DNA of 64,000 nucleotides from contig PUON01000154.1 in the NCBI GenBank assembly GCA_003552125.1, forward strand, positions 21,965 to 85,964. Direction: 5' to 3'. Under the pieces are notes generated by a model. The model was not told where the DNA came from, ran no database searches, and was given only the letters and a program-made list of their open reading frames with translations. The stretch is from Dehalococcoidia bacterium. GTDB taxonomy: Bacteria; Chloroflexota; Dehalococcoidia; GIF9; AB-539-J10. Shown piece by piece: positions 7,246 to 32,790 of this stretch; within the stretch, counting starts at the first letter, position 1; the number at the start of each line of letters is the position of its first letter. Made by a program: the position numbers and the translations under genes.

Positions 7246-7386
7246 CTATCCGGCAACGATGAGTATCACCCCGACAAGAATGAAGTATATACCCACAAGG
7301 TAGTTGAGGATCTTGGGGAATATCATCACGATAATACCGAACACCAGGCTTGCGATCCCAAAGAACAATCCTGCTCCAGTCATCAT
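7246..7386 (-). CDS. DUF3096-like small membrane protein.
   Basis: MMTGAGLFFGIASLVFGIIVMIFPKILNYLVGIYFILVGVILIVAG. An AAGGAGGAAGAAGGT SD sits immediately upstream. Confidence 0.6.
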   Translation of the reverse strand: MMTGAGLFFGIASLVFGIIVMIFPKILNYLVGIYFILVGVILIVAG

Positions 7387-22353: not shown

Positions 22354-23541
22354 GTGACTCGTTTCATATTCCACGTTGATCTGGATGCGTTCTTCGTTGC
22401 GGTGGAGCAGCTTCACAATCCATCGCTGCGAGGAAAGCCAGTCATCGTTGGAGGCCAACCGGGCTCCCGCGGCGTCGTGTCGGCGGCTTCATACGAGGCA
22501 CGGGAATACGGAGTTCGCTCTGCAATGCCACTCATACAGGCGCAGCGACTCTGTCCGCAGGCGGTATTCCTCCCCGTTCACTACTCGCGCTACGCACAGG
22601 CATCGAAACAGTTCATGATGCTGCTGGAAACACTGTCGGCCCGATTGGAACCCCTCGGCCTCGACGAAGCGTTCCTCGATGTGTCTTCCGTGGTTACAGG
22701 CACCGGGGAAGCAGCTGCACTCGCCCAGGCTCTGAAGCGACGCGTCAGTGACGAGCTAGGTCTCTGCTGCTCCGTAGGAGTGGCTACCTGCAAGACTGTG
22801 GCAAAGGTCGCCTCGGATTTCGACAAACCGGATGGTCTCACTGTGGTCCCCCCGGGTGAGGAGGCCTCCTTTCTTGCTCCGCTGGAGATTCGAAAACTAC
22901 CCGGCGCAGGAAGGAAGACAGCAGAATGCCTCGGAGACCTGGGGGTGCACACCATAGGTCAACTGGCAAGTCTTCGGGAAGGCGTCGTACGGAACAAGCT
23001 CGGCAGATACGGCGATCTGCTGCTGCAGCACGCCAGAGGAATCGATACCAGCGAAGTCGAACCTCGCGGTGAACCGCGCTCAGTGAGCCGGGAGACGACG
23101 TTTCAAATCGACTCGCGAGATATCACCACGCTGTACTCAGTGTTGCGGGCTATGAGCGAGGAGGTGGCTCAAGACCTGCGAACTCATCGAAAGCGTGCGG
23201 GCACTGTCACTCTCAAGCTGCGCTACCAGGACTTCCAGACAGTTACACGCCAGACCACGCTCAAGAAGCACTCCGCCGATGCGAACGAGTTCTTTCTGGC
23301 CGCGAGAGATCTGCTGCAGAGACTCCTAAGCGTCGATGAGCGACTCGTCCGGCTCATAGGCATTCGGACCTCCCGGCTCTGCGGACCGGAGCATCAGTTG
23401 GGCATGTTCTCTTCCGATGCAGCCAGGCTGCAGAATCTGGAGAGGGTTATTACCGAGATCCATGATCGGTATGGACCGGACTCCATTCGCCCCCTGAGTG
23501 ACCGCAAAAGGAGCCGGGATTCTTCTCCTCGAAAGACTTGA
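22354..23541 (+). CDS. dinB: DNA polymerase IV.
   Basis: IFHVDLDAFFVAVEQ...PVIVGG ... Y-family polymerase motifs. Confidence 0.9.
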   Translation: MTRFIFHVDLDAFFVAVEQLHNPSLRGKPVIVGGQPGSRGVVSAASYEAREYGVRSAMPLIQAQRLCPQAVFLPVHYSRYAQASKQFMMLLETLSARLEPLGLDEAFLDVSSVVTGTGEAAALAQALKRRVSDELGLCCSVGVATCKTVAKVASDFDKPDGLTVVPPGEEASFLAPLEIRKLPGAGRKTAECLGDLGVHTIGQLASLREGVVRNKLGRYGDLLLQHARGIDTSEVEPRGEPRSVSRETTFQIDSRDITTLYSVLRAMSEEVAQDLRTHRKRAGTVTLKLRYQDFQTVTRQTTLKKHSADANEFFLAARDLLQRLLSVDERLVRLIGIRTSRLCGPEHQLGMFSSDAARLQNLERVITEIHDRYGPDSIRPLSDRKRSRDSSPRKT

Positions 23542-23567
23542 CAGGCGACACCCGGGCCCTCTATTAT
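23538..23567 (+). promoter_or_regulatory. Sigma-70-like promoter for the ilv leader.
   Basis: TTGACA (23538-23543, overlapping the dinB stop), an 18-nt spacer, and TATTAT (23562-23567). The leader ATG is at 23584. Confidence 0.5.
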
Positions 23568-23583
23568 CTACAGTTAATACGAC

Positions 23584-23682
23584 ATGGAAAGCCTTGCATT
23601 AATAGTCTCCCCCGGTCTCATCCTTATTAGCATCATCATTATTGTGCGCACCGTGCGTGCGCCCGGGAGGCTGTTCGGCTAG
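23584..23682 (+). CDS. ilvL: ilvB-operon attenuator leader peptide, 32 aa.
   Basis: MESLALIVSPGLILISIIIIVRTVRAPGRLFG has 15 of 32 residues as Ile/Leu/Val, including four consecutive Ile codons. It is followed by an antiterminator segment and a terminator. Confidence 0.75.
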   Translation: MESLALIVSPGLILISIIIIVRTVRAPGRLFG

Positions 23683-23708
23683 TCCATACCATCAGATCAA
23701 CGACAAGC

Positions 23709-23746
23709 AGAGGGGCTCTCCCGGGTGGAGAGCCCCTCTCTTTTGT
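23709..23746 (+). terminator. Attenuator terminator upstream of ilvB.
   Basis: 12-bp perfect stem AGAGGGGCUCUC/GAGAGCCCCUCU with a CCGGGUG loop, then CUUUUG. The upstream CCCGGGAG (23662-23669) is complementary to CUCCCGGG (23718-23725), giving an antiterminator. Confidence 0.8.
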
Positions 23747-23788
23747 CCGCGCGAGAACAAGGCGTTACGACGAGAAGAAAGGAGCATC

Positions 23789-25474
23789 ATGAATAGGACG
23801 GGTGCACAGATCCTCTGCGAATCCCTGGTACGCGAAGGGGTAGAAGTGATCTTCGGCATCTCCGGTGGTACCGTCATTCCCCTCTACGATGCCTTCTCGG
23901 AGTATCCGCAGATTCGGCGGGTCCTCGTGCGCCACGAGCAGGCTGCAGCCCACGCAGCTGCAGGCTATGCGCGGACGAAGCAGAAGGCAGGCGTATGTGT
24001 CGCCACTTCCGGACCGGGTGCCACTAACCTTGTGACCGGCATCGCCGATGCCTACATGGACTCCACTCCGATGGTTGTCATTACCGGACAGGTTGCCACA
24101 AGCTTCATCGGTAAAGACGCCTTTCAGGAATGCGACATCACGGGAATCACTCTGCCAATCATCAAGCACAACTATCTGGTACACGACGTGCGGGATCTGG
24201 CGCGAATCGTCAAGGAGGCGTTCCACATTGCTCAGACAGGCAGGCCGGGGCCGGTACTCATCGACATCCCCAAGAGCGTCCAGATGGCGGTGACCGAATT
24301 CGAGTATCCGGATTCAGTGGATCTGCCGGGCTACAAACCCACTGCGGAACCGGACTACTCGCATGTCACCTGTGCAGCAGAACTGCTCAACAGGGCTGAG
24401 CGGCCGGTTATTATGGCGGGCAGGGGAGTGATCGTTTCGCAGGCATACGAGGAGCTGAGACAACTCGCCGAAATGTATCAGGCTCCGGTCGTTCACACGA
24501 TGCTGGGCCTCGGTTCGTTCCCTCCGCAGCATGATCTCGATCTGGGCATGATCGGTCACCACGGCACTGTGGCTGCCAACAAAACCGTGCAGGCTGCGGA
24601 TCTTGTCCTGGCAGTGGGGACACGTTTCGGAGATCGTGCCACGATGAGAACCAGAGATTTCGCTCCTCATGCGGTAGTGGTGCACATTGACATAGACCCG
24701 GCTGAGATAGGCAAGAACGTGATTCCGTTCGCATCTGTTGTAGGAGACGCAAAGACCGTGCTGAACATGCTGATTCCGCTGGTTCAGCCGGCAGTCAGGC
24801 CAGAATGGATACAGCAGATCCGCACGTGGCGGTCGACACATCCGCTCGTACCCTGCGCCCGGACCTCCAAGCTGTCCGCCCGCACGGTGATCAGGAACGT
24901 CTGTCGCTCCGCCGACAGCCATACCGTCATAGTAACCGGGGTCGGCCAGCATCAGATGTTTACGGCCCAGGAATACATGTCTCCAAGAACGAACGGCCTG
25001 ATATCTTCTGGAGGACTTGGGACCATGGGATTCGAGCTCCCTGCCGCGATTGGAGCACAGTTGGCTTCTCCTGAAGACGCAGTGTGGGTGGTCGCCGGTG
25101 ACGGTGGCTTCCAGATGACCATGCAGGAGCTGTCAACCGTCGTACAGGAAGGTCTCTCCATCAAGATCGCCATTATCAGTAATGGATACCTGGGCATGGT
25201 GCGACAATGGCAGGATCTCTTCCAGCAACGCAACTACGTTGATGTGGCACTCCACGCGCCGGATTTTGTCAAGCTTGCCGACGCCTACGGCATCACCGCG
25301 ATGCGTGTCGAGACGGAGGAGGAGATTGGTCCTGCGCTGAGGAAAGCGAACGAACACAGTGGGCCGTTTCTGATCGACTTTGTAGTCGATGCCGAGGAAA
25401 ACGTATATCCGATGGTCGCGCCCGGAGCAAGCCTCGACTGTATTATCGAATCACCTGAGAAGGTCGCAGCTTGA
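23789..25474 (+). CDS. ilvB: Acetolactate synthase large subunit.
   Basis: ThDP-enzyme motifs. N-terminus MNRTGAQILCESLVREGVEVIFG. AAAGGAG SD. Confidence 0.9.
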   Translation: MNRTGAQILCESLVREGVEVIFGISGGTVIPLYDAFSEYPQIRRVLVRHEQAAAHAAAGYARTKQKAGVCVATSGPGATNLVTGIADAYMDSTPMVVITGQVATSFIGKDAFQECDITGITLPIIKHNYLVHDVRDLARIVKEAFHIAQTGRPGPVLIDIPKSVQMAVTEFEYPDSVDLPGYKPTAEPDYSHVTCAAELLNRAERPVIMAGRGVIVSQAYEELRQLAEMYQAPVVHTMLGLGSFPPQHDLDLGMIGHHGTVAANKTVQAADLVLAVGTRFGDRATMRTRDFAPHAVVVHIDIDPAEIGKNVIPFASVVGDAKTVLNMLIPLVQPAVRPEWIQQIRTWRSTHPLVPCARTSKLSARTVIRNVCRSADSHTVIVTGVGQHQMFTAQEYMSPRTNGLISSGGLGTMGFELPAAIGAQLASPEDAVWVVAGDGGFQMTMQELSTVVQEGLSIKIAIISNGYLGMVRQWQDLFQQRNYVDVALHAPDFVKLADAYGITAMRVETEEEIGPALRKANEHSGPFLIDFVVDAEENVYPMVAPGASLDCIIESPEKVAA

Positions 25475-25491
25475 CTGCCGGGAGGAGCACC

Positions 25492-25995
25492 ATGGAAGAG
25501 AAGCTGCACACCCTCGTCGCACTCGTTCAGGACGAACCAGGAGTCCTGACGCGCATCGCGGGACTGTTTCGCCGCAGGGGATTCAATATAGAGAGCCTCT
25601 CAGTGGGGCACTGCGAACAACACCGTCTGTCGCGCATGACCATCGTAGTTAAGGGGGATGATGCAGAAGTCGACCAGGTGACCAGGCAACTCGACAAGCT
25701 GATAAACGTCGTGAGTGTCACCGACATCACTCGTTGCGACATGGTCGCAAGGGAACTCGCCCTGATTAAGGTGACAGCCACATCTGAGGATCGCAGCGAA
25801 ATCATGCAGATGGTCGATATCTATCGCGCGAAGATAGTCGATGTTGCCCCTGACTCAGTCACCGTGGAGATTACCGGGGGGGAAGACAAGATCGACTCTC
25901 TTCTCACTTTGCTCAGGCCCTTTGGGATCACTGAAATGGCGAGAACCGGACGAACGGCGCTCATCAGGGGCGCCAAATCCAGTATCAATAATTAA
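25492..25995 (+). CDS. ilvN: Acetolactate synthase small (regulatory) subunit.
   Basis: ACT domain [30 protein letters not shown]. Confidence 0.9.
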
Positions 25996-26015
25996 GCGGA
26001 TTGGAGGATTTCGAC

Positions 26016-27008
26016 ATGGCCAAGGTTTACTACGACAGCGACGCCGATCTTTCTCACTTGAAGGGAGGCGTCATAGGCATCGTTGGTTACGGCAGCCAGG
26101 GACACGCCCATGCGCAGAACCTAAGAGACAGTGGCTGCGAGGTGGTGGTGGCAAGCAGGCCCGGCGGTGCCGGCTGGAAAGCGGCCGAGGCTGATGGCTT
26201 TGCCGTCATGAGCGTCGCACAGGCGACGAAGAAGGCGGACATCCTGACGCTGTTGGCGCCCGACAATCAGCATGCCGCGATATATACTGAGTCGATCGAG
26301 CCGAACCTGACGGCGGGTAAGACGCTCATGTTCGCTCATGGCTTCAACGTTCATTTCTCCCAGGTTGTGCCTCCCCGGGATGTAGACGTCAGCATGGTGG
26401 CGCCGAAGTGTCCCGGACACATGCTTCGGGCAATATACACGGAAGACGCAGGCCCTCCGGCCATCATGGCCGTGTATCAGGACGTCTCCGGCAAGGCGAA
26501 GGAGGTGGCCCTGGCGTACGCCAGGGGTCTTGGCTGTACTCGTGCGGGCGTCATCGAGACGACGTTCGCGGAGGAGACCGAGACCGACCTGTTTGGTGAA
26601 CAGACCGTGCTCTGTGGCGGAGTGACCGCCCTGATCAAGGCAGGATTTGACACGCTTGTCGAAGCTGGTTACCAGCCGGAGATCGCCTACTTCGAATGCC
26701 TCAACGAGTTGAAGCTTATCGTTGACCTCATCTACCAGGGTGGAATGAAGTACATGCGCTACTCGGTTAGCGATGTCGCCGAGTTCGGCGACTACACCCG
26801 GGGACCACGCATCATAAATGAGTCAGTCCGCGAGGAGATGAGAAAGGTACTCAAGGAAGTCAAGGATGGCACGTTCGCTCTCGAATGGGTCGTGGAAAAC
26901 CAGGCGGGTCGGCCTCATTTCAACGCCATGAAAAGAAACGAACAACAGGAGCTCATCGAGGTAGTCGGTGAGCAATTGAGAGGAATGATGCCATGGACGA
27001 AGAAGTAG
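26016..27008 (+). CDS. ilvC: Ketol-acid reductoisomerase.
   Basis: [13 protein letters not shown]...[17 protein letters not shown]. Confidence 0.95.
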
Positions 27009-28636
27009 ACATTACGAGGGAGAGGTGCGGACAGGAACCGCCCCCTTCGCCCGTTCTCAGATCAGTACCCGACACCGTTATCATCTTCGATACAACCCTG
27101 CGGGATGGAGAGCAGGCTGCAGGCACGAGCCTCACCGCGAAGGAGAAGCTCACCATCGCGCGACAACTCGACACTTTGGGTGTCGATGTCATCGAAGCGG
27201 GCTTTCCGATAAGCTCGCCGGGCGATTTCGAGGCTGTGCAACTCATCGCCCGGGAAGTACGTCGGCCGGTCATCTGCGCCCTGGCGCATTGCAGACCAGC
27301 TGCAATCGACCGGGCATGGGAGGCGCTCAGAGAGGCCCCTCACCCGCGCATCCACGTCTTTCTGTCCGCCTCGGACGTACAACTCGCCCACATGCTCAAG
27401 AAGAGCCGTCAGGAGGCTCTGGAACTGGCACGTGAGATGGTGGCAAGGGCAAAGACCTACACAGACGACGTGGAGTTCTCCCCGATGGACGCCACACGTG
27501 CCGAGCCGGAGTTTCTGAACCAGTTGCTTGCAGCAGTCATTGATGCCGGAGCTGTCACCGTGAACATCGCCGATACCGTCGGCTATAGCACGGTAAACGA
27601 GTTCTCCTCGCTGATACATGGAATCACGAAGAATGTAGCGAACATCGACAGCGCCTGCATCAGCGTCCACTGTCACGATGATCTCGGCCTGGCAGTTGCG
27701 AATAGCCTGGAAGCTGTGCGAATGGGAGCCAGGCAGGTTGAGTGCACCATAAACGGCATCGGTGAGCGCGCCGGCAACGCTGCACTGGAAGAAATCGTAA
27801 TGGCGTTGCGAACACGGGCAGATACGTTCTCCGTGGCAACAAACATAGACACCACTCAACTCTACAAGACAAGCAGGTCGGTGAGCGACCTCACCGGGTT
27901 CCTTGTACAATCGAACAAGGCAATCGTGGGTGCGAACGCGTTCAGACACCAGTCCGGCATACACCAGGACGGGATGGTTAAGGAGTCCTCCACATACGAG
28001 ATCATGGACCCGCGATCCGTCGGAATCCCCGCCAGCAGTCTTGTACTCGGGAAACTGAGTGGCAAGCATGCATTTCGTGAACGACTGGCCGAGCTGGGGT
28101 TTTCTCTCAGCGATGAGGCGTTGAGTCATTCATTCCAGGCGTTCAAGGAACTGGCCGACAAGAAGCGAGAGATACGGGACCGCGACCTGATATCGCTCGT
28201 TAGCGAAGAGCTCCGGCAGGAGACCCAGGTGTACCGGCTGGATCACGTCGATGTCTCCTGCGGCGACCACAGCCTGCACTCGGCAGCCGTGCGCCTCATC
28301 GGCCCGGAAGGCCAGATCCTTGCGGATGCAGCTCTTGGCACCGGACCGGTGGATGCCGTGTACCAGGTGATCAACCGGATCATCGGCATTCCCAACACAC
28401 TCGTAGAGTTCAGCATTAACGCGAATACCGAGGGATTCGATGCCATCGGAGAGGTGCTAATTCGCATCGAGAGCGAGGGCGGACTCTATACAGGCCGTGG
28501 CGCATCCACAGATATCGTTGTGGCCAGCGCAAAAGCGTACATGAACGCACTTAACCGGCTGATTCTCTCCCGGCAGGAACATGTGGATCAATCCGGGGCC
28601 GGGAACTACAATCGCGGTATGCACGAGGCATCGTGA
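26993..28636 (+). CDS. leuA: 2-isopropylmalate synthase (a citramalate synthase cannot be excluded).
   Basis: [11 protein letters not shown]. HxH metal site. A C-terminal LeuA-type regulatory domain is present. The start is uncertain. Confidence 0.85.
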
Positions 28637-29931
28637 TGGCCACCATCACAGAGAAGATTCTGGCAGCACACTCCGGGCGGGCCTTCGTCTCGCCCGGAGA
28701 TTTCGCCAATGTGTCGGTGGATATGGTGCTCGCCAACGACATCACCGGTCCTCTCGCCATCAGGGAATTCCGCAAGCTGGGTGTGACACGTGTGTTCAAT
28801 CCGGCGCGCGTGGTAATGGTGCCTGACCACTTCATACCCAACAAGGACATCCCATCGGCGATTCAGGCACAGGACATTCGCGAATTCGCGAGGGAGCAGG
28901 GTATCGTGTATTTCGAGGCCGGGAGGTCCGGAATCGAACACGTGTTGCTACCCGAGGAAGGTCTTGTCGGACCCGGGCACGTCGTCATTGGTGCCGATTC
29001 TCACACCTGCACCTACGGCGCCCTTGGTGCCTTCGCGACCGGCATGGGATCTACTGACATCGCTGCCGCCATGGCCACCGGGGACATCTGGATGAAGGTG
29101 CCTCCCACGATCAAGCTGGTGTTCCATGGGTCGCTCCAGCCCTGGACCAGCGGCAAAGACCTCATCCTGCACGCCATCGGCGACATCGGCATCGACGGGG
29201 CTCTGTATTCAGCCATGGAGTTTCACGGTGAGGCAATCCAGTTCATGGACATGGACGGGCGGTTCACGATGGCCAACATGGCCATCGAGGCAGGGGCAAA
29301 GGCCGGCGTATTCGAAGTCGATGCCACCACCGAAGAATACCTCGCCACACATCCTCAACGCGCGGGAACCGCACCCTGCCGGAGATACTTCACCGATTCG
29401 AACGCGGACTACTCGAGAATCATCGAATACGATGCCTCAACGATCGAGCCCGTGGTTGCGTTTCCACATCTCCCGTCAAACGTCAGGCCGGCGAGCACGG
29501 CCGGTGACGTGGTAATCGATCAGGTGGTCATCGGAAGCTGCACAAACGGCCGCCTGTCGGATCTGCGCATTGCGGCGCAGATCCTGCGCGGCCGCTCCGT
29601 CCACGAGTCGCTGAGATGCATCATAATTCCGGGATCGCAAAGGGTCTACCGGCAGGCAGTGGACGAGGGACTGGTCCACGTGTTCCTCGACGCGGGTGCG
29701 GTGGTCAGCACGCCCACCTGCGGCCCCTGCCTCGGAGGGTACATGGGAATCCTCGCGCCCGGCGAGCGTTGTCTCTCGACCACTAACCGGAACTTCGTCG
29801 GCCGGATGGGAAGTCCTCAGTCCGAGGTATACCTTTCCAGCCCGGCGGTCGCTGCAGCCACCGCAATCGCTGGCAGAATCTCACCGCCCGGGAACACATA
29901 CGGAGAGTCCAGGGAGGAAATCTCATGGTAG
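28633..29931 (+). CDS. leuC: 3-isopropylmalate dehydratase large subunit.
   Basis: Aconitase-family domain. Overlaps the leuA stop. Confidence 0.9.
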
Positions 29932-30431
29932 TGTTGCGTGGCAAAGCACACCTCTACGGCGCAGACGTGGACACAGACGCTATCATCCCGGCACGATACC
30001 TGAACGTCTCTGAACCTGCTCTCCTTGCAGAACACTGTATGGAGGATATCGATCCCGGGTTCCGTGAACGGGTGTCTGAGGGCGACGTAATCGTGGCCAC
30101 CACGAACTTCGGTTGCGGGTCGTCACGTGAGCATGCCCCTATTGCGATCAAGGCCTGTGGCGTATCGTGTATCATCGCCCATAGCTTCGCCCGCATCTTC
30201 TTCCGCAACGCGATCAATATCGGGCTACCCCTGCTCGAATGCCCCGAAGCCGTCTCCGGCTGCACGGACGGTGATATACTGGAAATCGACCTCATCGAAG
30301 GCAAGGTAACCAATGCGACGAGAGCACTGTCTTTCACCGCCAAGCCTTACCCACAGTTCATGATGGGCATTGTCAACGCCGGGGGTCTCATTGCATACAC
30401 GAAGCGAAGACTGGAGGAAATAGAGGCATGA
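29925..30431 (+). CDS. leuD: 3-isopropylmalate dehydratase small subunit.
   Basis: Aconitase swivel domain. Its ATG lies just upstream of the leuC stop. Confidence 0.9.
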   Translation: MVVLRGKAHLYGADVDTDAIIPARYLNVSEPALLAEHCMEDIDPGFRERVSEGDVIVATTNFGCGSSREHAPIAIKACGVSCIIAHSFARIFFRNAINIGLPLLECPEAVSGCTDGDILEIDLIEGKVTNATRALSFTAKPYPQFMMGIVNAGGLIAYTKRRLEEIEA

Positions 30432-31525
30432 GCTACAGAATCGCAGTGCTCCGGGGAGACGGAATCGGTCCGGAAGTGACTGTGGAGGCGCTCAAGGCAC
30501 TTGCTGCCATAAGGGAGCGATACGGACACGATTTCGCCTACGAGGAGGGACTTGTCGGAGGGGCATCAATTGACGAATTGGGTGTTCCCATGACCGATGA
30601 GACGCTGGCACTATGCCAAAGCTCCGATGCCGTCCTGTTCGGAGCGGCAGGAGGTCCAAAATGGGATGACGCCAGCACCGATTTTCGGCCGGAACAGGCA
30701 CTGTTTCGCCTCCGCAAGGAACTTAACCTCTTCGCCAACCTGAGGCCGGTACGATCCTATCCAATGCTCGATGAGATGAGTCCGCTGCGACCAGAGGTGG
30801 TGAAGGGGGCGGACATCATCTTCGTGAGAGAACTCACGGGCGGCCTCTATTTCGGACAGCCAAAAATGCGATGGGAGACTCCTGAAGGGAGACGCGCAGT
30901 TGATTCGGAGGACTATTCAGAACAAGAGATCGCCAGGGTGGTCCGTGTCGCATGCGAACTGGCCAGGAAACGACGCAGAAAGGTTGTGTCTGTAGACAAG
31001 TTCAACGCCCTCATTTCGTCCCGGCTCTGGCGACAGGTCGCGACTGAGGTCGGTGCGGAGTACCCCGATATCGACCTTACGCACATGCTGGCCGATACGT
31101 TTGCGATGCAACTCATCGTGCGTCCGACCCAATTCGATGTAGTCGTCACCACCAACATGTTCGGGGACATATTCACCGATGAGGCCGCTGTGCTTGCGGG
31201 TTCGATGGGCATGCTTCCCTCTGCGAGTCTTTCAGGGCTGCCCTCCGGAAGGACGCTCGGCCTCTACGAACCGATTCATGGCTCCGCTCCTGATATCGCC
31301 GGACAGGGTATAGCCAATCCGCTTGCCTCGATACTCTGTTGTGCACTACTTCTCAGGTACTCCCTGGGACTCGAGGAAGAGGCACGAGTTGTGGCTGATG
31401 CCGTCACGACGGTACTTGAGGAGGGATACCGGACGAGCGATATTCACTCGGAGGGAACGAGCAAGGTAAGCACCCAAGAGATGGGAGATCTGGTTGCTGC
31501 CAGAATTCGTGAGCCGAGGGGTTGA
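30428..31525 (+). CDS. leuB: 3-isopropylmalate dehydrogenase.
   Basis: IAVLRGDGIGPEV ... ATGA overlap with leuD. Confidence 0.9.
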   Translation: MSYRIAVLRGDGIGPEVTVEALKALAAIRERYGHDFAYEEGLVGGASIDELGVPMTDETLALCQSSDAVLFGAAGGPKWDDASTDFRPEQALFRLRKELNLFANLRPVRSYPMLDEMSPLRPEVVKGADIIFVRELTGGLYFGQPKMRWETPEGRRAVDSEDYSEQEIARVVRVACELARKRRRKVVSVDKFNALISSRLWRQVATEVGAEYPDIDLTHMLADTFAMQLIVRPTQFDVVVTTNMFGDIFTDEAAVLAGSMGMLPSASLSGLPSGRTLGLYEPIHGSAPDIAGQGIANPLASILCCALLLRYSLGLEEEARVVADAVTTVLEEGYRTSDIHSEGTSKVSTQEMGDLVAARIREPRG

Positions 31526-31577
31526 CACTGTACTACCGGCTTCTTACAATGTTAGCTTGTCGGCTGGAAGGTTGCGA

Positions 31578-31679
31578 ATGATAGCTCCAGTGGTACTTGT
31601 GACAATCGTGGTGGCAGCTGCGATCCTTATCGTGCGCACTGATGGTGCGCACGGGAGGATTCTTCAGCCGGCAAGATAG
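31578..31679 (+). CDS. Second BCAA attenuator leader peptide, 33 aa, upstream of ilvE.
   Basis: MIAPVVLVTIVVAAAILIVRTDGAHGRILQPAR has 14 of 33 residues as Val/Ile/Leu. A GGAAGG SD lies 6 nt upstream. Confidence 0.75.
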   Translation: MIAPVVLVTIVVAAAILIVRTDGAHGRILQPAR

Positions 31680-31708
31680 GCAGATACAGCAAGTCCGATA
31701 AGAGAAAC

Positions 31709-31742
31709 GAAGAAGCCTCCCGAGGGAGGCTTCTTCTTATTC
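31709..31742 (+). terminator. Attenuator terminator upstream of ilvE.
   Basis: Stem GAAGAAGCCUCCC/GGGAGGCUUCUUC with a GAG loop, then UUAUU. The upstream GGGAGGAUUCUUC (31653-31665) can pair with the 5' arm as an antiterminator. A perfect pause hairpin GUGCGCAC-UGAUG-GUGCGCAC lies at 31632-31652. Confidence 0.8.
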
Positions 31743-31872
31743 GGGGGATGCGACGGGAAGACAGGGAGGAATGGTAGAGGCCGGCAACTGGTACGACACC
31801 CGTCCCCGGGCGAAACGCAGCGCCGCGGAGCCGGGGAGATGACCGAAGACTTATGACAGGAGGAATGCGACA

Positions 31873-32790
31873 TTGGAACCCTATGCCTTTTTCAAAGGAG
31901 AGTACATGCCTCTCAAGGATGCCAAGATTGGCATCCTGACTCAGGCGCTGCACTACGGCACCGCATGCTTCGGCGGAATACGCGCGAACTGGGACGCCGA
32001 GAGAGAGCAGTTCTGCATATTCCGGCTGAAGGATCACTACCGCCGTCAGCTCGATGCGTGCAAGATCCTGAACATTGAACTGCCGTATGACGAGCACGAT
32101 CTTGCCGGGTTCACCGTGGAAACCTTGAAGCGGGCCGGCTTCAGGGAGAATCTCTACTGCAGGCCGCTCGCCTACAAGTCCTCGGAGGCGATCGGGGTGA
32201 AGCTACACGACCTCGAGGACGATTTCTTCGTCATCGTAACCCCTCTTCCCCCGTACCTGGGCACCGGCGGAATCAAGTGCTGTACGTCATCCTGGCGGAG
32301 AGTGAGCGACAGCCAGATATCGCCCCGGGGAAAGATCACCGGCATCTACGTCAACAGCGCGCTCGCGAAGACCGACGCCAACAGAACAGGCTTTGATGAA
32401 GCCATCATGCTGAACGAAAAGGGACACGTATCCGAGGGAACTGGCGAGAACATCTTTGTAGTCATCAAGGGACAGCTCATCACTCCTCCCTCCTATGACA
32501 GCATCCTGCTCGGAATCACCCGGGATAGCGTGATGCAACTGGCGCAGAACGAATTGGGTCTGCAGACTGTTGAACGCAGCATCGACCGAAGTGAGCTGTA
32601 CGTGGCGGATGAGGCGTTCTTCACGGGTACCGCGACCAATGTCGCGCCAATCGTGTCGGTCGACCTGCGGACGATCGGCAACGGCGAAACCGGTCCGATT
32701 ACAGCAAGGCTTCAGGAATTGTATGCAGAGGTGGCACTGGGACGCAATCCGAAGTACTCTGAGTGGTACACGATTGTGAAGCAGGACTAG
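31873..32790 (+). CDS. ilvE: Branched-chain amino-acid aminotransferase.
   Basis: ...KGEYMPLKDAKIGILTQALHYGTACFGGIR. TTG start after ACAGGAGGA. Confidence 0.9.
   Translation: MEPYAFFKGEYMPLKDAKIGILTQALHYGTACFGGIRANWDAEREQFCIFRLKDHYRRQLDACKILNIELPYDEHDLAGFTVETLKRAGFRENLYCRPLAYKSSEAIGVKLHDLEDDFFVIVTPLPPYLGTGGIKCCTSSWRRVSDSQISPRGKITGIYVNSALAKTDANRTGFDEAIMLNEKGHVSEGTGENIFVVIKGQLITPPSYDSILLGITRDSVMQLAQNELGLQTVERSIDRSELYVADEAFFTGTATNVAPIVSVDLRTIGNGETGPITARLQELYAEVALGRNPKYSEWYTIVKQD

Follow-up and report, generated by a model that had tools for sequence, protein, structure and literature searches.

A putative leader-peptide transcription attenuator upstream of the ilvBNC-leuACDB operon of a Dehalococcoidia bacterium

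Which signal sets the expression of the ilvB-ilvN-ilvC-leuA-leuC-leuD-leuB operon (23789–31525, + strand) in a Dehalococcoidia bacterium? The question arises from the interval between dinB and ilvB in a 64,000-nucleotide stretch of DNA (the window) from the metagenome-assembled genome of this uncultured organism, where an initial annotation had described ribosome-mediated attenuation of an ilvBNC-leuACDB supraoperon. The gene order dinB, ilvB-ilvN-ilvC-leuA-leuC-leuD-leuB, ilvE agrees with that description according to NCBIfam equivalog matches (E-values of 1e-63 to 1e-228 for the operon genes), and neighbouring genes of the operon are separated by no more than 5 nt where they do not overlap. 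The interval contains (i) an ORF rich in codons for branched-chain amino acids (BCAA; Ile, Leu, Val), (ii) an intrinsic terminator, (iii) an antiterminator that excludes it, and (iv) a pairing of segments 1 and 2 that in turn excludes the antiterminator. Every sequence-testable feature of an attenuator is present in the window and conserved in all 16 other sequences compared, which supports the initial reading: the element is likely a ribosome-mediated (leader-peptide) transcription attenuator controlling this operon.

Promoter-like site and leader ORF

A sigma-70-like promoter (TTGACA-18-TATTAT; 23538–23567, + strand) agrees with the consensus at 11 of 12 positions, and the TGA stop codon of dinB (23539–23541) falls within its -35 hexamer, the arrangement originally proposed. 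The -35 hexamer is invariant in all 16 sequences covering the promoter region, including two in non-dinB contexts, and a 17–18 nt spacer and a TAnnAT -10 are likewise preserved in all of them. Promoter activity is predicted from this site, and transcription would start about 7 nt past the -10, near 23572–23575.

The leader ORF read from the window (23584–23682, + strand; MESLALIVSPGLILISIIIIVRTVRAPGRLFG) comprises 32 codons plus UAG (23680–23682). Its share of Ile, Leu and Val codons (15 of 32, 47 %) and its four successive Ile codons (23632–23643) are as first reported, and a share of at least 45 % Ile/Leu/Val occurs in only two of the 449 short ATG-initiated ORFs of the window, this one included. 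Minor codons account for 7 of the 15 BCAA codons (TTA, ATA, three ATT, two CTT). Codons 12–21 (LILISIIIIV; 23617–23646, + strand) form the regulatory BCAA run and the proposed ribosome stall zone; the last codon of this core (GUG, 23644) lies 16 nt 5' of segment 2. The ORF was not annotated by any gene caller in any of the contigs examined.

The leader has no Shine-Dalgarno (SD) sequence, and its ATG is located 16 nt past the -10, giving a predicted 5'UTR of only about 8–12 nt. Leader translation is assumed in the following, and its efficiency in particular, because of the missing SD sequence and the short 5'UTR, while the SD sequence of ilvB (GAAAGGAG, with the ATG at 23789; 23777–23791, + strand) is strong and invariant in the six sequences of alignment A1. 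This alignment (n = 6), which runs from the promoter to ilvB, placed the terminator loop incorrectly and was replaced by alignment A2.

Alternative RNA structures in the window

The terminator hairpin (AGAGGGGCUCUCC-CGGGU-GGAGAGCCCCUCU; 23709–23739, + strand) has a stem of 13 bp, nine of them G-C (23709–23721 with 23727–23739), a 5-nt loop and a folding energy of -27.4 kcal/mol. It is followed, 43 nt before the ilvB start, by the U-tract CUUUUGU (23740–23746, + strand), where the attenuated transcript is expected to end. Terminator and U-tract had been recognized initially, with a stem of 12 instead of 13 bp.

The 5' arm of the terminator together with its loop constitutes segment 3 (23709–23727), the 3' arm segment 4. 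Segment 2 (23660–23682, + strand; CGCCCGGGAGGCUGUUCGGCUAG) is the switch strand, reaching as far as the leader stop codon and having segment 1 or segment 3 as alternative partners. The complementarity of the 3' end of the leader to the terminator holds as initially noted (CCCGGGAG at 23663–23670, CUCCCGGG at 23718–23725), the latter covering the last four bases of the terminator stem and most of the loop. The proposed size of 8 bp, however, proved too small, since the antiterminator consists of an 11-bp core (23660–23670 with 23717–23727) plus four 3-bp extensions into the variable spacer (23683–23708, + strand), where the parts GAC and AGC (~23700–23707) lengthen the helix. Its energy is about -35 kcal/mol, and the stretch 23660–23730 folds to -36.4 kcal/mol.

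Two further structures are absent from the initial description. Segment 1 (23601–23611, + strand) pairs as 5' arm with 23665–23675 to give the 1:2 anti-antiterminator hairpin of the minimum free energy (MFE) structures (-30.6 to -34 kcal/mol). An inner hairpin (GCGCAC-N5-GUGCGC, 23646–23651 with 23657–23662; + strand), is located within the 1:2 loop directly 5' of segment 2; a guess would be that it acts as a pause or nucleation element. The pairings 1:2, 2:3 and 3:4 are mutually exclusive, and in the window the energies of the three corresponding structures are comparable, as are their ranges across 17 sequences (terminator -20 to -35, antiterminator -22 to -35, 1:2 hairpin -24 to -40 kcal/mol). 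The fold has a z-score of -3.1, with 1 of 200 shuffled sequences folding equally well. The duplex of segments 2 and 3 reaches -37.5 kcal/mol versus -18.8 ± 3.7 kcal/mol for shuffled segment 2 (0 of 200 as low).

Conservation and covariation among relatives

The window was compared with 16 other distinct sequences from uncultured Dehalococcoidia/Chloroflexota, i.e., the part recovered and examined of the group with IlvB ~66–87 % identical. In every one of the 16 the element lies 5' of ilvB. In two cases ilvB is a stand-alone locus whose gene context is unrelated and lacks dinB, and here promoter, leader and terminator accompany ilvB rather than dinB. These loci bear on the explanation that a chance ORF happens to precede the ordinary terminator of dinB. 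The hairpin does lie downstream of dinB on the same strand, but it follows a conserved promoter-like site, 168 nt beyond the dinB stop codon, the element is preserved as a whole before ilvB in loci lacking dinB, and both ORF conservation and covariation (see below) oppose chance. Such an explanation is already contradicted by the comparative data and has next to no probability.

Homologous leader ORFs of 28–34 codons are present in all 16 other sequences with ATG, frame, BCAA run and UAG preserved; hairpins conserved without the ORF, a case initially named as refuting the attenuator, were not observed. The distance from the ATG to segment 2 amounts to 69, 72, 78, 81 or 87 nt, all multiples of three (16 of the 17 sequences); the spacer, 23–32 nt in length, falls into all three classes modulo 3. 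The stop codon is UAG in every sequence and lies 15 nt past the start of GGGAGG (segment 2) in 16 of 17, and GGGAGGCU in segment 2 is nearly invariant. The BCAA core takes the form LILSI[VIL]I[IM]V or L.LVLV.V, alternating between Ile-rich and Val/Leu-rich versions. Its most variable codon (ATC, GTC, GTA, GTT, CTC, CTT or ACT) changes in first and third bases, the central U being retained in 13 of 14 comparable sequences. Start codon, frame, UAG, whole-codon length differences and BCAA core are all signs that the ORF is coding.

The RNA elements are conserved as well. All 17 sequences have a T-rich tract after the terminator stem, L082 and L169 showing the weakest. The nucleotides of the inner-hairpin stem are essentially invariant; variation is confined to the loop, with a loop codon for V, L, M, E or S, pointing to a constraint at the RNA level rather than the peptide level. 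The register GCGCAC-N5-GUGCGC fits every sequence but L174; the register GUGCGCA:UGCGUGC was rejected, as it is broken by L170 and L082. Two other candidate pairings, one between the invariant UUAGC and the GCUAG at the stop codon, the other between UCCUU and the ilvB SD sequence, were likewise rejected, showing neither covariation nor consistent MFE support.

Covariation was scored on a MAFFT alignment in whose fitting structure was not used. In the antiterminator 97.8 % of cells pair compared to 38–73 % with the partner slid by 1–3 columns, and 13 cells are changed on both sides, although such counts exceed the independent events behind them, since the 17 sequences are related; the observed score was reached by 0 of 500 shuffles. 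Three pairs show compensatory changes (23662:23725 as CG, UA and AU; 23663:23724 and 23664:23723 as CG and UA). The 3' partners are located in the terminator loop and the covarying 5' partners in a leader codon, and no other reason is evident for the loop to covary with this codon. Compensatory changes were found in the terminator and the 1:2 hairpin, too: 98.5 % of terminator cells are paired across the 17 sequences (four pairs with compensatory changes) and 77–89 % of those in the 1:2 hairpin (three pairs), eight such pairs being counted for terminator and 1:2 hairpin together. An imperfect MAFFT alignment of segment 1 leaves the 1:2 pairing less well supported than the remaining helices; the flanking extensions of this hairpin differ yet stay complementary (CUGACAG:CUGUCAG in L083, GCUGGUU:GGCCAGC in L001).

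The covariation also bears on a possible function of the peptide itself. Having a hydrophobic core and a basic tail, the leader peptide resembles a small membrane protein, and a trans-acting attenuator leader peptide, peTrpL, is reported for Sinorhizobium (PMC7298713). The hairpin could then be the mere terminator of a small gene, any effect on ilvB being incidental, or the peptide could act in trans. However, the C-terminal half is conserved in its nucleotides, third positions included, coinciding with the RNA helices, while the hairpin-loop codon varies freely. Covariation links a leader codon to the terminator loop, the element always adjoins ilvB upstream whatever the gene neighbourhood, and the ORF escapes the gene callers in every contig. 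A functional membrane peptide is thus very improbable.

An equally small chance is given to a switch operated by a T-box (uncharged tRNA), a riboswitch (e.g., for ppGpp) or an RNA-binding protein, with the ORF being fortuitous. T-boxes or ppGpp riboswitches do occur at ilvB or other BCAA genes elsewhere (PMC10272879; PMC2494555), and the invariant inner hairpin and UUAGC might be a binding site. Against this, a search of the whole window at Rfam gathering scores yielded no hit to any family, be it leader, T-box or riboswitch (leader families considered included Leu_leader, His_leader, Thr_leader, Trp_leader, Phe_leader and ilvB-OMG). A permissive search (E ≤ 10) of 23000–24300 and 31450–31900 returned sub-threshold terminator look-alikes alone (ctRNA_p42d, BjrC68, and Phe_leader with 21 bits versus a threshold of 55), and no T-box or riboswitch covariance model matched there even at E ≤ 10. 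Moreover, the RNA is too small and simple for a T-box, and the conserved start, frame and stop of an ORF varying in length by whole codons would not be expected of a fortuitous reading frame.

More distant loci of the Dehalococcoidales type (IlvB ~56–68 % identical) have ilvD directly upstream of ilvB and accordingly no element at that position. One of these loci (L086) carries an unrelated short Val/Leu/Ile leader and a terminator upstream of ilvD.

Predicted mechanism and known systems

Acting as a ribosome-mediated attenuator, the element would respond to BCAA supply in the following way, of which stall geometry, masking geometry and response are all inferred. After transcription start, a ribosome would translate the 32-codon leader. 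With charged Ile-, Leu- and Val-tRNAs plentiful, it would reach the UAG, its footprint covering segment 2 (23660–23675), so that segments 3 and 4 could pair to the 13-bp terminator with its U-tract and RNA polymerase would stop near 23745. With no ribosome engaged, segment 1 would pair with segment 2 and the terminator would form again. Scarcity of BCAA-tRNAs would stall the ribosome in the BCAA run (23594–23646, mainly codons 12–21), where it would separate segment 1 from segment 2 with its front edge short of 23660; the free segment 2 could then pair with the emerging 5' arm and loop of the terminator, forming the antiterminator and permitting read-through into ilvB. Exclusion of the 1:2 pairing by the stalled ribosome is a steric argument, because most BCAA codons lie outside segment 1, in the loop that separates it from segment 2. 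In the textbook trp attenuator, the regulatory codons are located inside segment 1.

A second predicted attenuator of the same design, also with a BCAA-rich leader, is located 5' of ilvE (31522–31739) and is a paralogous copy of the ilvB element.

The same RNA switch could operate coupled to translation, yet without specific sensing of Ile-, Leu- and Val-tRNAs, i.e., report general translation capacity or act mainly in ribosome loading or re-initiation, so that the signal would not reside in the hydrophobic codons. For Streptomyces coelicolor, mutation of candidate regulatory codons in the ilvB leader was without effect according to work cited in PMC1262725; leader-like anatomy is thus no guarantee of the classic mechanism. 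Leader genes have been proposed to play a wider part in re-initiation (PMC4833913), and the SD-less leader with its very short 5'UTR would suit a switch of this kind. On the other hand, the BCAA identity of the core is preserved in 17 sequences despite first- and third-base changes, the core alternates between its Ile-rich and Val/Leu-rich versions, minor BCAA codons are enriched, the products of the operon are exactly Ile, Leu and Val, and the paralogous ilvE leader is BCAA-rich, too. Translation coupling without BCAA sensing is therefore regarded as unlikely, and leader-peptide attenuation responding to BCAA-tRNA charging remains the preferred reading.

This model gives no reason for the inner hairpin and UUAGC to be invariant. 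It is doubtful, though conceivable, that both, together with the SD-less, near-leaderless start, whose distance from the -10 is fixed, represent an added layer of control. This layer could be a programmed pause of the polymerase until a 70S ribosome has loaded onto the near-leaderless mRNA, a site recognized by a protein or RNA factor, or a nascent-chain or trans-acting signal in the conserved ...VRTxRAxGRL peptide. As part of this reading, duplication of the element may also have generated a small BCAA attenuator regulon of ilvB operon and ilvE.

Attenuation of ilvB by a translated upstream ORF (uORF) is described as common across bacteria (PMC10272879); since it is already regarded as widespread, the general understanding is unchanged. 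The literature search returned nothing specific on leader-peptide attenuators in Chloroflexi/Dehalococcoidia; an earlier prediction for Chloroflexi is possible (Lopatovskaya et al. 2010, PMID 20198868, outside the search). The predicted mechanism is well known but the sequence family is new. It extends classic leader-peptide attenuation, with good covariation, to uncultured Dehalococcoidia (Chloroflexota) and, being clean and compact (17 sequences and the ilvE paralogue), lends itself to annotation. The element suggests that these Dehalococcoidia regulate BCAA synthesis via tRNA charging and not via a protein regulator, and the SD-less leader start near the 5' end offers a usable test case for transcription-translation coupling in Chloroflexota.

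Leader-peptide attenuators of Escherichia coli and Salmonella control ilvGMEDA (ilvL) and ilvBN (ivbL). They share with the present element a leader that is about 32 codons long and mixes Ile, Leu and Val codons (multivalent control), alternative 1:2, 2:3 and 3:4 pairings, and an intrinsic terminator directly before the BCAA genes, but no sequence or covariance-model similarity. The element of the window differs further by (i) an SD-less leader with a very short 5'UTR, (ii) the position of the BCAA run mostly between segments 1 and 2, (iii) the extra invariant inner hairpin and the use of the terminator loop by the antiterminator, and (iv) the control of a fused seven-gene ilv-leu operon by one element in a Chloroflexota genome.

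Outside the Proteobacteria, Staphylococcus aureus likewise has a leader-peptide attenuator before a combined ilv-leu operon; its leader is described as leucine-rich and acts alongside CodY (PMC5794164), whereas here Ile codons outnumber Leu and Leu outnumber Val, and no protein regulator is evident. The RNA motifs ilvB-OMG and ilvB (Leptospira), for which a reinterpretation as uORFs proposed to act by attenuation in several phyla has been given (PMC10272879), are also conserved RNAs 5' of ilvB with in-frame start and stop codons and BCAA-rich peptides; the present element is a separate sequence family, and all its Rfam matches (E ≤ 10) are terminator-like. The ilvBNC leader of Corynebacterium (IlvL/ilvB-II motif) belongs to another sequence family and phylum, has 15 amino acids (MTIIRLVVVTARRLP) in a regulatory region of 292 nt, and in C. 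glutamicum its uORF attenuation was verified by mutation, compared to comparative evidence here (PMC11857589, PMC10272879). Nevertheless, it shares the BCAA-rich uORF before ilvBNC, the three-hairpin logic of anti-antiterminator, antiterminator and terminator (PMC11857589, PMC10272879), and a leader start near the 5' end of the transcript, the transcription start site of C. glutamicum lying 1 nt from the start codon (PMC11857589).

Organization and folding of the ilvB leader region

Directly upstream of ilvB, a leader ORF of 32 codons (23584-23682, + strand; MESLALIVSPGLILISIIIIVRTVRAPGRLFG followed by UAG) contains 15 Ile/Leu/Val codons, including four successive Ile codons at positions 17-20. 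It is preceded by a promoter-like site (TTGACA-18-TATTAT, 23538-23567, + strand) matching 11 of 12 consensus positions, the -35 hexamer of which encloses the TGA that ends the preceding gene (22354-23541; DNA polymerase IV, dinB, by NCBIfam). The leader is followed by a terminator (23709-23721 pairing with 23727-23739; terminator scan) with 9 G-C pairs in the stem, a 5-nt loop and a subsequent CUUUUGU stretch. The start codon of ilvB (23789) is preceded by GAAAGGAG, and the downstream genes ilvN, ilvC, leuA, leuC, leuD and leuB follow with overlaps or gaps of ≤5 nt, while leuB and ilvE are separated by 347 nt. Thus, the leader ORF with its run of four Ile codons, the promoter-like site, the complementary segments and the ilvB-leu gene context described in the initial annotation were all re-found, as was the terminator hairpin with its U-tract, the stem of which comprises 13 bp rather than the 12 bp proposed there.

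These features exceed chance expectation: (i) the fold z-score of the 191-nt region is -3.1, (ii) of the 449 short ATG-ORFs in the window, no more than 2 contain at least 45 % Ile/Leu/Val, and (iii) the duplex between the leader 3' end and the terminator 5' arm plus loop has an energy of -37.5 kcal/mol, compared to -18.8 ± 3.7 kcal/mol with shuffled segment 2 (the leader 3' end). The second ORF at that level (7246-7386, - strand; 46 codons, MMTGAGLFFGIASLVFGIIVMIFPKILNYLVGIYFILVGVILIVAG) is very hydrophobic and resembles a small membrane protein more than a leader.

Folding, including the comparison of antiterminator and terminator energies proposed in the initial annotation, yielded three structures that exclude one another and are of comparable strength (-36.4 kcal/mol for 23660-23730 and -27.4 kcal/mol for the terminator). 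The 1:2 hairpin (23601-23611 with 23665-23675) encloses the run of branched-chain amino acid (BCAA) codons and an inner hairpin (GCGCAC-N5-GUGCGC, 23646-23662). The antiterminator (2:3) has as its core CGCCCGGGAGG (23660-23670) paired with UCUCCCGGGUG (23717-23727), i.e., with the last stem bases and the loop of the terminator (3:4), and is lengthened by four more 3-bp blocks into the spacer and the remainder of the terminator 5' arm. The 8-bp pairing of CCCGGGAG with CUCCCGGG, noted in the initial annotation, forms the centre of this far larger one. A T-box or riboswitch as the regulatory device is not supported, since no Rfam model reached its threshold in the window and neither class appeared even at E ≤ 10.

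Conservation and covariation of the element among relatives

The nearest IlvB proteins in a one-genome-per-species collection share 79-80 % identity and belong to MAGs titled uncultured Chloroflexia or Dehalococcoidia bacterium; in a large protein collection, every named protein carries the label "Dehalococcoidia bacterium". Identity declines continuously from 87 % to about 66 % and then steps down to about 62 %, the latter group being of the Dehalococcoidales type with ilvD immediately upstream of ilvB. From the 66-87 % group, sampled in part, 16 more distinct upstream regions were obtained from genome contigs, a metagenome scan and contig look-ups, and the same element is present in all 16. 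Most of these regions share the synteny pyrF-DUF951-dinB-[element]-ilvBNC-leuA. In two cases (loci L172/L173 and L174/L175), a stand-alone ilvB resides in a quite different neighbourhood, with promoter, leader and terminator still directly upstream; hence it is an ilvB element rather than a dinB element. A dinB terminator accompanied by a chance ORF is therefore excluded, being contradicted by these non-dinB loci as well as by the conservation data. The stand-alone copies lack downstream ilvN, ilvC or leuA, and one adjoins an ISL3 transposase; their cassettes are complete, with leaders rich in Val/Leu and poor in Ile. They may represent mobile or paralogous acetolactate synthase genes carrying their own attenuator.

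Gene callers annotated the leader ORF in none of the contigs. All 17 leaders (window and relatives) start with M[N/D/E], comprise 28-34 codons and end with UAG. A leader lost in relatives that retain the hairpins, named in the initial annotation as evidence against its reading, was not encountered: start, frame and stop are kept in the 17 sequences. In 16 of them, GGGAGG starts 15 nt before the stop codon. Segment 2 lies 69, 72, 78, 81 or 87 nt from the ATG in 16 of the 17 sequences, each distance being a multiple of three, whereas the spacer behind the stop (23-32 nt) represents all three modulo-3 classes. The 17th sequence (L174) has a divergent segment 2 with the pattern match out of register, its ORF nonetheless being open. 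The hydrophobic core reads LILSI[V/I/L]I[I/M]V, except in the divergent leaders of L083, L172 and L174, where it reads L.LVLV.V; the latter two belong to the stand-alone ilvB loci. In the most variable core codon (ATC, GTC, GTA, GTT, CTC, CTT or ACT), positions 1 and 3 are free and the central U is kept in 13 of 14 comparable sequences, a pattern of selection for the class of codon rather than for base pairing in the RNA. By contrast, the C-terminal half (VRTxRAxGRL) is constrained as RNA, since its nucleotides are invariant including third positions and it overlaps the inner hairpin and segment 2, while the sole codon in the inner-hairpin loop is free to change (V, L, M, E or S). Minor codons account for 7 of the 15 BCAA codons of the window leader; one of these, TTA, represents 0 % of Leu codons in ten neighbouring genes. 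Within the BCAA run, UUAGC (23627-23631; codons CUU-AGC, Leu-Ser) is nucleotide-invariant in the same columns of all 17 sequences, among which no supported helix was found for it; a similar (U/A)AGCA box lies immediately 5' of the terminator.

The most serious alternative is a translation-coupled switch that does not specifically read BCAA codons. Codon mutations in the ilvB leader of S. coelicolor were without effect (cited in PMC1262725). In the present family, the BCAA codons persist through sequence change, which speaks against this alternative.

Covariation was counted in a MAFFT alignment unfitted to any structure. The 11 pairs of the antiterminator core are standard in 97.8 % of cells, a percentage inflated by taking the structure from one of the 17 sequences (the compensatory changes are not), and sliding the 3' partner by 1-3 columns reduces it to 38-73 %. 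Pair 23662:23725 is C-G in 6, U-A in 4 and A-U in 4 sequences, 23663:23724 is C-G in 16 and U-A in 1, and 23664:23723 is U-A in 12 and C-G in 4. Altogether, 13 antiterminator cells are changed on both sides, not as independent events given the relatedness of the sequences, and none of 500 shuffles reached the observed covariation score. The 5' partners form a Pro/Ser/Thr codon of the leader and the 3' partners are situated in the terminator loop; apart from a predicted antiterminator helix, we see no other reason for such covariation. Column 23717 (U or C) is likewise informative: its antiterminator partner is always G, and in the terminator it covaries with 23731 (U-A or C-G). In the terminated conformation (1:2, inner hairpin and terminator), 90 % of cells are paired, with compensatory changes in 8 pairs. 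Segment 1 is the worst-aligned part, its flanks being complementary in per-sequence folds despite differing sequences. A functional small membrane peptide encoded by the leader ORF retains some residual plausibility, but would leave the nucleotide-level constraints and the covariation with the terminator loop unexplained.

A second, putative attenuator and leaders of other lineages

The profile of the 17 sequences also matches 31624-31738 between leuB and ilvE (nhmmer, E = 6e-5). The surrounding element (31522-31739, + strand) is evidently a second predicted leader-peptide attenuator, paralogous to that of ilvB. It comprises a promoter-like TTGACA-17-TACAAT (+ strand), an SD-like GGAAGG (31567-31572, + strand), a leader of 33 codons (31578-31679, + strand; MIAPVVLVTIVVAAAILIVRTDGAHGRILQPAR), an inner hairpin of the same type as in the ilvB leader (GUGCGCAC-UGAUG-GUGCGCAC), a segment 2 (CGGGAGGAUUCUUC) complementary to the terminator 5' arm with one mismatch, and a terminator (31709-31733; AAGAAGCCUCCC-GAG-GGAGGCUUCUU). 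No Rfam match was obtained for the ilvE attenuator. The -35 hexamers at 23538-23543 and 31522-31527 enclose the TGA with which dinB and leuB end, respectively, leaving zero intergenic space before either promoter.

Among the loci retrieved, BCAA-rich leader ORFs with terminators are also found upstream of ilvB or ilvD in many unrelated lineages, underlining the commonness of the strategy. Those of Bacteroidota and Ignavibacteriota (L016, L017, L020, L021, L024, L026, L030, L032, L033, L035, L044, L045, L056 and L061) comprise about 48-63 codons about 200-350 nt upstream of ilvB, have BCAA-rich ends (e.g., ...GIIIILGTLPGILSLTIVG) and appear to constitute a different leader-peptide family. Further leaders (L098:387-555; L097:407-560; L145:2183-2395, MLLLLVVVLVVLISLLLIGL...; L151:2236-2390; and Dehalococcoidales locus L086, about 680-780, upstream of ilvD) show no sequence relationship with the ilvB-leader family of the window, their ends being complementary to the 5' arm or loop of the following terminator. 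In L086, the leader (MNSQNVVLVLIVSNRNR) is followed by GCCGUCCCC-GU-GGGGACGGC-U9; from this locus, Dehalococcoidales with an ilvD-ilvB operon may possess an analogous device upstream of ilvD.

Attenuation model and comparison with known systems

The geometry of the element fits classic leader-peptide attenuation and, together with the conserved ORF and the covarying antiterminator, supports the mechanism initially proposed from sequence. With the ribosome at the UAG (23680), roughly 23665-23695, i.e., segment 2, would be masked, and the terminator would form. If the ribosome stalled with any of codons 12-21 in the A site, thus sitting between segments 1 and 2, it would extend no further than about 23659, and the free segment 2 could capture segment 3 during its transcription. 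In the absence of translation, segment 1 would pair with segment 2 and segment 3 with segment 4. The mixed Ile/Leu/Val leader suits multivalent control of an operon making all three amino acids.

The leader lacks a Shine-Dalgarno sequence, unlike ilvB with its strong and invariant one, and starts 15-17 nt after the -10 hexamer in 14 of 16 sequences, predicting a 5'UTR of about 8-12 nt. Such a leader near the 5' end is not without precedent, since the ilvL start codon of C. glutamicum lies 1 nt from the transcription start site (PMC11857589). For Chloroflexi or Dehalococcoidia, the literature searched, outside of which lies one relevant 2010 survey, contained no report of leader-peptide attenuation.

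The leaders of enterobacterial ilvGMEDA and ilvBN operate by leader-peptide attenuation. The window element probably shares its mechanism with these leaders and with the ilvBNC attenuator of Corynebacterium. The latter was verified by mutation (PMC11857589). uORF attenuation is considered a common control of ilvB by Breaker's group, who reassigned the ilvB-OMG and Leptospira ilvB motifs to this mode of control (PMC10272879). None of the curated Rfam models matches the window element, which is therefore a separate sequence family: new as a family, in a mode of ilvB control already known.
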